Assembly: GCF_000027125.1 (NCBI RefSeq)
Contig: NC_017626.1
Strand: one strand, 5' to 3'
DNA length: 64,000 nucleotides
Source: Escherichia coli 042
GTDB taxonomy: Bacteria; Pseudomonadota; Gammaproteobacteria; Enterobacterales; Enterobacteriaceae
In this document: positions 1-20,917 of the stretch, in pieces
How the letters are laid out: each line of letters opens with the position of its first letter
How positions within the stretch are numbered: position 1 is the first letter of the stretch
Made by a program: the position numbers and the translations under genes
The notes under the pieces: generated by a model
The model's database searches: none
What the model was told of the DNA's origin: nothing
What the model saw: only the letters and a program-made list of their open reading frames with translations

Positions 1-957
1 GGGGGCCCAGTCCGGAAACAAAGTCTACGGGGGCATCGAAATCGTCCTGCATAACCTGGTTCAGATAATCTGTTGGTATGACATTCCACCAGTTCGTAGC
101 ACCATTAATACCTGCATATGCTCTTAATACAGCAACAATAACCCATTTTTTTTGTTGTTTATCATAAGCAAACAAAGGAGAACCACTATCCCCAGGGGCT
201 CCATAGTCAGGTAAAGGGCCGTTTACAGGATTATAAGTTTGCCCGGGATTAGAGACTATTGTTGCATCAGATATCAGAGGAACTCCTGTGGTTCCTCCTG
301 TTTTAAAAGCATATCCACCGGCAACCTTAACTAAATTTCCGTCCTTGTCCTTAGTGTACTGCGTACCACTACCCACCCGATAAAAAGCGGTGTAACGTTC
401 AGTGTATTTATAAGCATTGGCTTTGGTTCCTTCTGATGTTACCGCTGAGGGAATAACTTCTGTAACCAGTTTATTCAGACGTGGAGCATGGAAGTCAATA
501 GAAGGGTGGTTATTACGGTCAACAAGGGAATATGTATTTTTCCCATTACCAAAGCTCACACTCCGATATCCTCCGTTATGCTTTACGCTGACGATATACT
601 GAGGTGATACAAGCGTAGCAACGCCATTTGAGCTCACACTGCTGAAATCGGCCATTGGGGCTTTACCCAGTCTTCCCACAAGTTTTCCGTCCTTATCATA
701 TACCGGAATATCATTGGCACCAGGTACAAAAAGCCCTTTGTTTTCGGCGAAATCACGATAAATCTGATAGGCAATATCGGAACGGACAATACCCGCCTGG
801 GATATCTGAGAGTAACACAGACAGATTGCTGGAATGCCAGCCAGAAGAATATGCGTTAATCTTCGGCATGTCTTTTTTATTACCCTGCGGGCAAGTTCAG
901 AGACAGCAATAAGCCCCCCGGTGACGGGGCAATATTTAAGAGAATAAACTTTATTCA
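1..957 (-). CDS. SPATE-family serine protease autotransporter, 5' part only (gene continues beyond window start); Pic-like
   Basis: Minus-strand frame open from GTG at 955-957 to position 1 (319 codons, no stop); translation starts MNKVYSLKYCPVTGGLIAVSELARRV (extended autotransporter signal peptide) and contains the GDSGSPLF serine-protease motif. Not in the ORF track because it is truncated. Confidence 0.75.
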
Positions 958-1419
958 CTATGGATTCTCCATGATGTTTACAAGGGATATAAAAGTAAAA
1001 TAGCTGAAGAAGCTAATGATAACCCGACGTTATCACCAGAAAGGAAAATATAGTTACTGCATTAATGTGTTTTTGTGAACTGAACCGCCCCGGGTTTCCT
1101 GGAGATTGTTTTATCTGTGAACTCAGGCTGCCAGATCGTAAGCGTAAACTGACCGCCGTATGTAGCCATGATGCCAGTATTGGTAACGTAGGTGCACCCC
1201 TATCTATTTTTGTAGAACCGGAGGAAACAGACCAGATAGTTTAAATGAGCTGGTTATGCGTAACATAATTTATCTATTTTGGCTCTTACAAAATAGATAA
1301 AGAAGGAGTATCTGATGAGATACTCCATTATGACAGACTCAACTCATGTGATTTTTCTTAAAGTTCTCTGCTTGCGCCAGTCCCCCCATATAAACATCAT
1401 CATTCGCTACTTGAAGTGG

Positions 1420-1728
1420 TCAACAAAAACTGGCCACCGAGTTAGAGTTTTTCCAGTATCGATTTTCCGATTCGTTTGGGGGTAACCCACCGTTATATTC
1501 GTGCGGTCTTAGTGCGTTGTAATATCCAACGATATAGTCCGTTATGGCGTGAGCTGCCTCGCTGAAGCTTACGTAACCCACCACCGGCATCCATTCGTTC
1601 TTCAGACTCCTGAAGAAGCGTTCCATTGGGCTGTTATCCCAGCAGTTTCCGCGCCGGCTCATACTCTGTCTGATCTGGTATCGCCACAATAACTGCCGGA
1701 ACTGCCTGCTCGTATAATGACTGCCCTG
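1420..1728 (-). pseudogene. IS911-like orfB, C-terminal fragment
   Basis: Translation [46 protein letters not shown]...; IS3-family OrfB C-terminus, separated from the N-terminal part by an inserted element. Confidence 0.75.
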
Positions 1729-1744
1729 GACGCCCTTCTAAGAG

Positions 1745-2821
1745 TCAAGCTGTTATCGGGATACTGTTGATCCGCCTGTTTTGATTGCGCAGTAACGTGT
1801 AAACTTCGCGGGAGATATATCGCTTTAGACAGCGTATCGCTTCCATTTTTGTATGTCCTTCGGCTACACGCCTGGCGACATATTCCTTTGTTTTTGCGTC
1901 AGTTCGTAAGCGTCCGATGGCGATGATGTGAAGTGCACTATTTGCAGCACGATCTCCACCACGATTAAGTCGGTAACGGTTCGTTTTTCCAGAAGAAACG
2001 GGGACCGGGCTGACACCACACAGTGCCGCAAATCCTGATTCTGATCTTAACCGTTGAGGATTGTCTCCGGCAGTGATCAGCAACTGTGAAGCGCTTTCGT
2101 ATCCGATAGCATTACGTTTAATCAGCTCAGGTGCCAACTCGTCGACAATTGCCGCAATCATGACATCCAGATCAGCGATTTCGTCATGTAACTCGAGATA
2201 GCGTCGGGCAAGGGACTTTAATGAAATGCGATAAACGTTGGTTACATTGCGGTATTCACTGGCATCAGGTCTCCAGGAACCCAGGGTCCTGATGAGCTGC
2301 ATGCGCGTCATATTTCTGAGCTGTTCACGTAATTCATCCGGGGCAGAGATAATATTTGAATGGATAATCTGGAGAGCGACTCTGCGGGCTGATATTGCTG
2401 TTTTTCGGCAAGTTTTTAATACCCGCAGGGACTCAATCATGCCATCACGCGTTTTGGGAGTAACTGTCCTGATGCCTGAGAATGCTGCATGAGCGGCACA
2501 TTCAGCATCAATTGTGTCACTTTTACCCCGTTTGCGTCGCTCCATCCGGTCTGGAGCAGTCACCTCAAGAACTTCTAACCCGGCGTTCTGAAAATAACGA
2601 AGCAAACCGGAACCATAGGTACCTGTGCACTCAACACCAATTCGCTTTAATGTCCCAAACGAGGTCATCCATGCCAGCATCTGCCGGTAACCTTGTCGTG
2701 TTGTGGAGAAATACTGAGTCCCAAGGACTTTATTGTTCTGATCTACGACAGCGGCAACGTGCAAATCTTTATGTGTATCCACGCCACCCACAACGGCAGC
2801 TTTGGTAACTTTATCAACCAT
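1745..2821 (-). CDS. IS110-family (DEDD) transposase/recombinase
   Basis: 358 aa; N-terminus MVDKVTKAAVVGGVDTHKDLHVAAV (VGxDxHK motif typical of IS110 family); AGGAG RBS 8 nt upstream of the ATG. Confidence 0.75.
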   Translation of the reverse strand: MVDKVTKAAVVGGVDTHKDLHVAAVVDQNNKVLGTQYFSTTRQGYRQMLAWMTSFGTLKRIGVECTGTYGSGLLRYFQNAGLEVLEVTAPDRMERRKRGKSDTIDAECAAHAAFSGIRTVTPKTRDGMIESLRVLKTCRKTAISARRVALQIIHSNIISAPDELREQLRNMTRMQLIRTLGSWRPDASEYRNVTNVYRISLKSLARRYLELHDEIADLDVMIAAIVDELAPELIKRNAIGYESASQLLITAGDNPQRLRSESGFAALCGVSPVPVSSGKTNRYRLNRGGDRAANSALHIIAIGRLRTDAKTKEYVARRVAEGHTKMEAIRCLKRYISREVYTLLRNQNRRINSIPITA

Positions 2822-19354: not shown

Positions 19355-19381
19355 AAAATCCGGGCTATTGCCCGGATTTTA
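19355..19381 (-). terminator. Rho-independent terminator downstream of the integrase gene
   Basis: Hairpin ATCCGGGC-TATT-GCCCGGAT followed by a T-run on the minus strand, immediately after the integrase stop. Confidence 0.6.
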
Positions 19382-20644
19382 TTATTTTAATGGGTTATTA
19401 ATCTTTGCATATTCAAATGGACTGATAAATTTTTCTCTGTTTGCATCCAGAAAATCGGCCCACCACTGTAGCATCAGTCGCCGTTCTTCCAGATGTTCTG
19501 CTTTATGAATGTAAGCAGCACGTACACCGTTACGTTCCTGATGGCTCATCTGACGTTCCACAGCATCGCGGGACCACAAACCTGATTCAATCAATGCACT
19601 GCACGCCATCGCCCGGAATCCATGGCCACAGACTTCCTGGGTTGTGTCATACCCCATCACCCTCAGGGCTTTATTTACAGTATTTTCACTGATTGGTTTA
19701 CGCGGGTCATGTGCACCCGTAAATATCAGACCATTTTCACCTGCCCATGTCTGAAGTTCTGTCAGTATGGCTACAGCCTGTTTACTGAGTGGCACAAGAT
19801 GTGGTGTCCGCATCTTGGAGCCCCGGTGTGAGAATTTTACGCCAGGCAGAGGTTCGCGTTCGGCTGGAATAGTCCACATGGCATTGTCAATATCAATTTC
19901 AGACCAGCGGGCATATCTGAGTTCACTGGAACGAATAAAAACCAGTAAATTCAGCATAACGGCAAGCCGGGTGACAGGCTGGCCTTTATAACCGTCAATA
20001 CGCGACAGAAGTTCAGGCAGGCGTGAAAGATTCAGAGCGGGGCGATGCTGGCGTTTTACCGTGGTCAATGCACCAGCCATATCCAGAGCCGGGTTATATC
20101 TGATGATGCCAGACTGTACGGCGTAACGCATTACAGCAGATATTCTTTGCTGCAGACGACTGGCGATTTCATAAATTTGTTTTGCTTCTGCAGCACGAAC
20201 AGGGATAAGCAGGTCCGGGGTATTGAGTGTTGTGATATCCCGGTTGCCGATAAAGGGGAAAACGTGTGTCTCGAGGCTTTTGAGTACTTTATCGCTGTGT
20301 GATTGTGCCCATTGTTTATTACTGGCATGCCAGCGTCGTGCAATATGTTCAAAAGAGAGCTGTAAATCAGGGACTACTTTTTTAACTCTTTTCTGTTCGC
20401 AAGGGTCAATCCCCTCTGAAATCAGTTTTCGGGCCTCATCCCGTTTTGTACGAGCTTCGGAGAGAGAAACTTCTGGATACACACCAAGTGCCAGAGTCTT
20501 CTCCTTACCCAGAATACGATAACGGAGACGCCAGTAACGGGAACCATTAGGATGTACCAGCAGGAACATGCCAGCCCCGTCAGTGAGTTTATAAGCCTTG
20601 TCAGTAGGCTTTGCTGCCCGGATTTTTGCGTCAGTCAGTGCCAT
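19382..20644 (-). CDS. int: P4-family tyrosine integrase
   Basis: 420 aa, MALTDAKIRAAKPTDKAYKLTDGAGMFLLVHPNGSRYWRLRYR...; C-terminal catalytic region HGFRAMA...RAAYIH; located ~200 bp from the 3' end of tRNA-Phe. Confidence 0.9.
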   Translation of the reverse strand: MALTDAKIRAAKPTDKAYKLTDGAGMFLLVHPNGSRYWRLRYRILGKEKTLALGVYPEVSLSEARTKRDEARKLISEGIDPCEQKRVKKVVPDLQLSFEHIARRWHASNKQWAQSHSDKVLKSLETHVFPFIGNRDITTLNTPDLLIPVRAAEAKQIYEIASRLQQRISAVMRYAVQSGIIRYNPALDMAGALTTVKRQHRPALNLSRLPELLSRIDGYKGQPVTRLAVMLNLLVFIRSSELRYARWSEIDIDNAMWTIPAEREPLPGVKFSHRGSKMRTPHLVPLSKQAVAILTELQTWAGENGLIFTGAHDPRKPISENTVNKALRVMGYDTTQEVCGHGFRAMACSALIESGLWSRDAVERQMSHQERNGVRAAYIHKAEHLEERRLMLQWWADFLDANREKFISPFEYAKINNPLK

Positions 20645-20841
20645 AGTTCAGCCTTCTGAATGCGTTAAAGAGGGTACAAATTCTGTCGAACTGGGGTATG
20701 CCCACAATTATACCCACACAATGAGGTTGATGTGGGGGGAATCTGGTTGAGTTCGGTAGAATTGATTTGGAGGCAGGACGCTTAAATCGTGGCGTCCTGG
20801 AATGAAAAACGGACCTCCGTGGAGGTCCGTTGATATGAATT

Positions 20842-20917
20842 TGGTGCCCGGACTCGGAATCGAACCAAGGACACGGGGATTTTCAATCCCCTGCTCTACC
20901 GACTGAGCTATCCGGGC
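20842..20917 (-). tRNA. pheU: tRNA-Phe (GAA)
   Basis: Exact 76-nt tRNA-Phe as reverse complement (GCCCGGATAGCTCAGTCGGTAGAGCAGGGGATTGAAAATCCCCGTGTCCTTGGTTCGATTCCGAGTCCGGGCACCA); followed by yjdC-dsbD-cutA as at K-12 pheU. Confidence 0.95.

Follow-up and report, generated by a model that had tools for sequence, protein, structure and literature searches.

What is the 21 kb of DNA that leads up to the tRNA-Phe gene pheU in the stretch of Escherichia coli 042 analysed here (64,000 nt of contig NC_017626.1; hereafter the window), and does it represent an element in its own right or one end of something larger? A preliminary description of the sequence had read this DNA as an integrase-associated island at tRNA-Phe, and all of the elements that it named are present where it had placed them. 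Our analysis indicates, with a probability of roughly 0.9, that window positions 1-20841 are the integrase-proximal end of the ~117-120-kb pheU pathogenicity island of enteroaggregative E. coli (EAEC), of the pic/set 'intP4.5' type, described in strain 042. On this reading, the 21 kb would comprise about one sixth of the whole island and would not be a self-contained element. The features on which the reading rests are collected in Table 1.

The right-hand boundary of the island is defined by pheU and by the adjacent integrase gene, int. ARAGORN and Rfam agree on the position and minus-strand orientation of the tRNA-Phe gene that had been proposed, and the 23 nt at the 3' end of the tRNA (20842-20864) constitute the core of the attachment (att) site. 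The gene on the 3' side of the tRNA encodes, as had been suggested, a P4-type integrase. Specifically, the protein contains three domains, shares 55% identity with phage P4 Int across 410 aa, and, in the alignment, conserves the HGFR motif and the RAAYIH region of the catalytic Tyr, indicating that it is a true P4-type integrase. The protein is identical to that of the relatives considered below; int looks intact, and recombination at the 3' end of tRNA-Phe is its predicted reaction.

To the right of this boundary, the sequence is core chromosome. Homology to K-12 begins at 20709/20728 and extends to 64000 with 97-99% identity, and is colinear through pheU, dicD (yjdC), dsbD, cutA, dcuA, and aspA to purA, in agreement with the K-12 order yjdC-dsbD-cutA-dcuA-aspA that had been reported to resume downstream of the tRNA. 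To the left, the sequence is non-core as far as the window start, as had also been stated: K-12 lacks the region, and the composition is deviant. In the comparison of composition that the preliminary description had called for, both measures are lower in the island than in the core, with a mean GC content in 1-kb windows of 0.479 vs 0.521 (Mann-Whitney p = 2.6e-4) and a third-codon-position GC content (GC3) of long open reading frames (ORFs) of 0.475 vs 0.583 (p = 1.4e-4). A second copy of the tRNA-Phe 3' end is absent from the window and from the first relatives compared (exact matches of 14-30 nt; a 24-mer with <=4 mismatches), consistent with the proposal that the far boundary of the island, with its repeat of the tRNA 3' end, lies beyond the window. 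Profile and BLAST evidence bears out each component of the mixed cargo that had been listed: a gene for a serine protease autotransporter of Enterobacteriaceae (SPATE; ESPR and Peptidase_S6 domains, and 99.8% identity of the window part to the annotated pic of complete genome FORC_069), a candidate defence operon (read by PADLOC as a DrmD-like helicase, IetA, IetS, and type III Mod and Res), three insertion sequence (IS) families plus IS1 (IS3, IS110, IS30, and IS1 all found), and a ColE1 remnant (RNAI above the Rfam threshold, within plasmid-like sequence at 16668-17774). The region thus has the hallmarks of a genomic island: a position on the 3' side of a tRNA gene together with an integrase, absence from the K-12 site, deviant composition, and virulence and mobility genes.

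Table 1. Coordinates, strand, and supporting evidence of features in window positions 1-20917
Feature	Position	Strand	Evidence
pic (SPATE mucinase), 5' part, codons 1-319 of 1372	1-958	-	ESPR + Peptidase_S6, E = 5e-98
Apparent relic of older defence block	1081-1411		100% match to M217 (2971-3301 of segment compared)
IS3-family element, split by nested insertions	1408-5261	-	31-nt terminal inverted repeats 1408-1438, 5231-5261
IS110-family element inside IS3-family element; transposase 1745-2821	1729-3102	-	NCBIfam transpos_IS110, 195 bits vs cut-off 140
IS30, 1221 bp, inside IS3-family element; transposase 3764-4915	3702-4922	+	26-nt inverted repeats 3702-3727, 4897-4922; NCBIfam transpos_IS30, 276 bits
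97-aa ORF, last gene of operon block	5255-5548	-	Accompanies operon in all relatives seen
res, type III restriction helicase-nuclease, intact, 956 aa	5637-8507	-	PADLOC REase_III, 2119 bits; ResIII Pfam domain in identical relatives
mod, type III methyltransferase, pseudogene	8510-10137	-	PADLOC MTase_III, 967 bits for intact 542-aa allele
ietS, S8 subtilisin-like protease, intact, 795 aa	10147-12534	-	PADLOC IetS, 1206 bits
ietA, AAA ATPase, intact, 326 aa	12544-13524	-	PADLOC IetA, 350 bits
ietH, SNF2/DrmD-like helicase, pseudogene	13550-16398	-	PADLOC DrmD, 669 bits
isrK-like small RNA motif	16534-16613	+	Rfam RF01394, 56.8 bits vs gathering score 50
ColE1-type plasmid fragment: hypothetical gene, DUF2931 gene 16884-17402, RNAII promoter + first ~300 nt	16668-17774	+	95.8% identical to 5.3-kb Escherichia albertii plasmid
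RNAI	17476-17581	-	RF00106, 59.9 bits vs gathering score 47
Fragment with 87-aa ORF 17868-18131, ends at IS1	17778-18256	-	95.7% identical to Salmonella plasmid region; phrog_32179
IS1; insAB' 18272-18969	18257-19024	-	IS1 terminal repeats; annotated IS1A in FORC_069
int, P4-type tyrosine integrase, intact, 420 aa	19382-20644	-	Arm-DNA-bind_3 PF13356, Phage_int_M PF22022, Phage_integrase PF00589
Sequence directly 3' of tRNA (terminator hairpin, region upstream of int)	20709-20841		Three-way alignment
tRNA-Phe(GAA) gene pheU	20842-20917	-	ARAGORN; Rfam tRNA 68.3 bits

The identity of the island is indicated by its relatives and by the literature. In a survey of 5426 complete genomes, 80% or more of the 21 kb is present in only 38, and in both of the two whose neighbourhood was inspected, FORC_069 and HH35, the block adjoins an integrase gene and a tRNA-Phe gene. 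Window positions 1-20965 are 99.9% identical to the block in E. coli O104:H4, FORC_069, HH35, and others. The tRNA-Phe gene of FORC_069 and HH35 is pheV, adjoining yqgA-speC, and similarity to the window there ends about 20-48 bp past the tRNA; the best matches to the 21 kb all end about 48 bp past it (window position 20965). In O104:H4, 55989, and FORC_069, this block occupies pheV instead of pheU. A related integrase adjoins pheU in 1304 of the 5426 genomes, and the defence operon is present in 73 of the 5426, chromosomal in all.

The UPEC69 complete genome contains the block at pheU, so that the comparison with pheU and pheV islands proposed in the preliminary description places one block at both sites (pheU in UPEC69; pheV in FORC_069 and HH35). 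The int-pheU-dicD-dsbD junction of UPEC69 is 100% identical to that of the window, and no difference separates the two over 20163-36824, which takes in the island end and 16 kb of core. The island of UPEC69 spans 119,653 bp from the tRNA to an imperfect repeat, TTCGATTCCGAGTCCGG-CACCA, which is followed by K-12-like yjdQ and cadC, and it carries pic, the aai (Sci-2) and Sci-1 type VI secretion systems (T6SSs) with Tle1/Tli1, Ag43, and a yee/cbtA module. Besides this terminal repeat, the 120-kb island contains no copy of the tRNA 3' end (exact match, 12-24 nt). Beyond 36824, a step in similarity is observed: from 36825 onward (ampC/frd region), the window and UPEC69 differ by about 0.5%. The step looks like a recombination breakpoint and would fit a joint exchange of island and flank.

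For EAEC 042 itself, a 117-kb pathogenicity island at pheU with an AggR-regulated aai T6SS, Ec042-4562 to 4577, has been described (PMC2808357, citing Dudley et al. 2006), and pic of this strain, Ec042-4593, comes shortly after the T6SS genes 4562-4577 (PMC2808357). The window has the pheU insertion site in common with this 117-kb island, which carries both pic and the aai T6SS, and the window island is probably the same locus. For 55989 and O104:H4, 'intP4.5' pheV islands have been tabulated with the repeat TTCGATTCCGAGTCCGG-CACCA, a helicase, pic, and a T6SS (PMC11537424). These GI-pheV islands, 99.9% identical to the window over 1-20965, resemble it in integrase protein, pic, helicase/defence operon, and IS1 and have the distal repeat TTCGATTCCGAGTCCGG-CACCA, and differ from it in the pheV site (yqgA-speC side), in a group II intron at the equivalent of 3272/3273, and in intact ietH and mod. 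The SHI-1/she island of Shigella flexneri has a P4-like integrase and, to our knowledge, contains neither an aai T6SS nor an ietHAS/type III restriction-modification (R-M) cassette. Likened by its description, SHI-1/she ('PAI pic/set', PMC7545054) shares with the window island the association with tRNA-Phe and the genes pic and setAB; it is 46.6-71.6 kb in size, is located at pheV, and is reported to be unstable and to excise (PMC7545054). Earlier work already covers the island and where it is inserted, the virulence genes that it carries, and each half of the defence operon, and placing the window as one end of a large island adds little new biology. Mildly new are only two points: that in this lineage the defence operon is frameshifted twice, and that there is evidence of an older McrBC/type I R-M block, most of it since deleted.

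Several points weigh against assigning the 21 kb to the large EAEC island. The far boundary and the remainder of the island lie beyond the window, and the statement about the whole island is built on comparison with relatives and on published work. Over its left 3.3 kb, the window is ordered like the FORC_069 and O104:H4 islands at pheV and unlike UPEC69, in which the pic segment is inverted and rearranged, and the upstream structure in the window genome can therefore only be inferred. In addition, an excisionase gene was not found in the window.

One alternative is that the 21 kb are a separate small island lying in tandem with an independent pic/T6SS island, the two having arrived by successive integrations at pheU. 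In its favour, the defence block (IS nest, operon, and DUF2931 piece) is present in 73 genomes vs 38 for the full 21 kb, and in M217 it occurs in another context with no integrase or tRNA gene nearby, indicating that the block can move or recombine alone. Tandem integration should, however, duplicate the tRNA 3' end within the island, and no such copy is present in the window (<=4 mismatches) or in the UPEC69 island (exact matches of 12-24 nt); moreover, there is only one integrase and one distal repeat. We consider two integrations improbable. A P4-like satellite prophage remnant, with the operon in its defence hotspot, would account for the 55% identity of int to P4 Int and for the inovirus-type Gp2-like fragment and isrK-like motif between int and the operon, but no relative of P4 primase, sid, delta, psu, epsilon, or cI appears in the annotations of the relatives over 120 kb, no P4 RNA family scores above Rfam thresholds in the window, and the content is that of T6SSs, autotransporters, and a yee module, which makes a satellite origin highly improbable.

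The identity of pheU and pheV as genes raises the question whether an island that really lies at pheV was misjoined to the pheU flank during assembly, the more so as none of the best matches to the 21 kb extends more than about 48 bp past the tRNA and both of those inspected (FORC_069 and HH35) are at pheV. The chance of such an artefact is very slight: the independent UPEC69 genome has the exact junction, identity over 20163-36824, and a proper cadC boundary, and a pheU island with such content has been published for EAEC 042 (PMC2808357). Least probable of all, to the point of being negligible, is an ancestral chromosomal region lost by K-12 and most other strains. The yjdQ integrase relic of K-12 does show loss at the site, but the block is found in <1% of complete genomes, occurs at two tRNA-Phe loci at 99.9% identity, deviates in composition, and is bounded by an att repeat.

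The K-12 site is itself informative about the history of the locus. The gap between pheU and cadC in K-12 measures only 617 bp and contains yjdQ, an integrase fragment (2692-2854 of the K-12 segment compared) that is 69% identical to the 3' end of int (window 19334-19578). K-12 retains the sequence directly 3' of the tRNA (20709-20841) as well, and so does the distal end of the island in UPEC69. The retention in K-12 of yjdQ and of the ~130 bp just after the tRNA indicates that K-12 once carried an island of this family, and its 'empty' site is, to judge from these remnants, a scar that an older island of this kind left behind.

With the 21 kb read as the integrase-proximal end of the EAEC pheU island, the following sequence of events can be proposed. 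In a recombination event with the final ~23 nt of the tRNA-Phe gene, the P4-type tyrosine integrase would have inserted a circular element, so that the tRNA was restored and its 3' end was duplicated imperfectly at the distal edge of the island, beside cadC. Since pheU and pheV offer the same target, one island could have come to lie at either locus in different lineages. Recombination at the tRNA-Phe 3' end would explain the position of the island, its distal repeat, and its occurrence at the identical genes pheU or pheV. Decay and accretion in place would have followed: elements of the IS110 family and IS30 inserted into the IS3-family element, IS1 arrived close to int, with what looks like a deletion beside it, part of a ColE1-type plasmid would have been captured, and an older McrBC/type I R-M block would have been mostly deleted. 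This route of integration, and likewise the present mobility or immobility of the island, is inferred, and the anatomy of the region, its boundaries, its relatives, and its frameshifts are observed.

A further component of the 21 kb is the defence operon (5255-16398, minus strand), the genes of which are tightly packed, with gaps of 25, 9, 9, 2, and 88 nt. The order of its first three genes, SNF2 helicase, AAA ATPase, and S8 protease, is that of the anti-phage system ietHAS (Liu-DS4), in which ietH is a required DrmD-like helicase with K65 and D165 essential (PMC13069673), and mod and res come next, after gaps of 9 and 2 nt. Type III R-M has been reported to be co-localised with ietAS in E. 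coli (bioRxiv 10.1101/2022.08.21.504612). The intact ietH allele has its Walker A lysine at K65 and its DEAH aspartate at D165, matching the published positions exactly, and the DPPY motif of Mod is at residue 68. The 97-aa ORF that ends the block has no Pfam, PADLOC, or NCBIfam match. Nothing usable on the recognition sequence of Mod was found in the methylome literature for O104:H4 C227-11.

The operon of the window differs from ietHAS and type III R-M systems in that the reading frame is lost after about 75 codons in ietH and about 240 in mod. Specifically, Mod ends at 247 of its 542 aa owing to a 1-bp deletion near 9415, and a T5-to-T4 deletion near 16171, after about 75 codons, divides ietH into an 85-aa product and an 865-aa ORF. 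Both 1-bp deletions are absent from every complete-genome relative inspected. Sequencing error was considered as their source and rejected, as about 90-100 contigs, from both isolates and gut metagenomes, encode exactly these products: the truncated Mod product is found on 99 public contigs and the truncated 85-aa IetH product on 91, and the two co-occur in all four independent contigs examined (4/4), gut-metagenome scaffolds included. The frameshifts are therefore real and clonal. An operon that could be read as functional is thus doubly frameshifted here and intact in O104:H4 and other relatives.

In type III enzymes of the EcoP15I type, Mod is needed for both methylation and restriction. 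Because ietHAS needs ietH and type III R-M needs Mod, both defence modules are probably inactive in this lineage. Induced ietHAS with a dead ietH has been found to be toxic (PMC13069673), and a natural ietH knock-out with intact ietA and ietS provides a small data point on this claim. The genes ietH, ietA, ietS, mod, and res might conceivably form one co-adapted defence unit and not two neighbouring ones, in which case the independent 1-bp knock-outs of ietH and mod fixed in the 042 lineage may be linked events. We regard this as doubtful; if it were true, one loss could have made the other tolerable or advantageous, for example by relieving the toxicity of dead ietH or by admitting incoming plasmids or phages.

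The left end of the window contains the beginning of pic and a nest of IS elements. The window covers only the N-terminal part of Pic; the full 1372-aa protein of near-identical relatives has the autotransporter beta domain PF03797. Upstream of the window lie the remainder of pic and, antisense to it, setBA, the setB/setA ORFs mapping about 620-1340 bp before base 1. Between pic and the IS nest, the segment 1081-1411 corresponds in M217 to DNA that follows mcrC and to the terminal 72 bp of a type I DUF3387/hsdR pseudogene, and 961 bp of hsdR beside the IS3 end are deleted in the window vs M217. By this match, the segment is the apparent relic of a larger McrBC/type I R-M block beside the present operon.

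The IS3-family element, which we take to be IS911-like, is split into three pieces that, when joined, make 1268 bp in which OrfA and OrfB read through. M217 has the uninterrupted site of the IS110-family element, with window position 1728 joined to 3103. The IS3 copy of HH35 was considered as a guide for reconstructing the nested elements and was rejected as a separate insertion; M217 supplied the empty site. A 2.27-kb group II intron (ltrA) interrupts orfB of the IS3-family element at 3272/3273 in FORC_069, O104:H4, M217, and UPEC69, and the window site is uninterrupted.

Between the operon and int lie plasmid debris, a small RNA motif, and IS1. The ColE1-type fragment includes RNAI and the promoter-proximal region of RNAII, the latter about 88-96% identical to small plasmids, and thousands of ColE1-type plasmids match 17422-17774 only. 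The ColE1 origin is located about 555 nt from the RNAII start, and would here lie near 18030. The homology stops at 17774, about 300 nt into the inferred RNAII, and the origin is absent, so that the fragment cannot replicate. Matches of 17425-17774 in a phage collection were rejected as phage homology, being ColE1 vector sequence in phage records. The DUF2931 gene adjoins genes for DUF2235 (Tle1-type lipase) on related plasmids and stands alone in the window. It may therefore represent a type VI immunity gene left as an orphan, in an island that in relatives encodes Tle1/Tli1. The isrK-like motif is flanked by the ietH start on one side and the plasmid-derived piece on the other; isrK is an Hfq-binding small RNA of Salmonella prophage origin, and the motif overlaps a stretch that weakly resembles an 'Ash family' region of Hafnia phage yong2.

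The adjoining fragment (17778-18256) resembles a region annotated as an inovirus-type Gp2 protein and is followed by IS1. No target-site duplication flanks IS1, the flanks reading GAGAGGG vs TGTTCCC. A candidate 9-bp duplication was rejected, the BLAST overlap being a CATCA microhomology with the IS1 end. UPEC69 is without IS1 and keeps its last two bases (CC) at the CATCA microhomology, which suggests a deletion of IS1 in UPEC69 and not an insertion in the window.

In the core flank, the window departs from K-12 at a few places. Two intergenic pieces of ~145 bp around yjeJ (~31469 and ~32602) are absent vs K-12, and 274 bp, most of yjeN, are missing at 43365-43374. Between the first and second tRNA-Gly genes (glyV and glyX), the window contains ~120 bp more than K-12 (~50183-50300), which presumably resemble an ERIC/IRU repeat.

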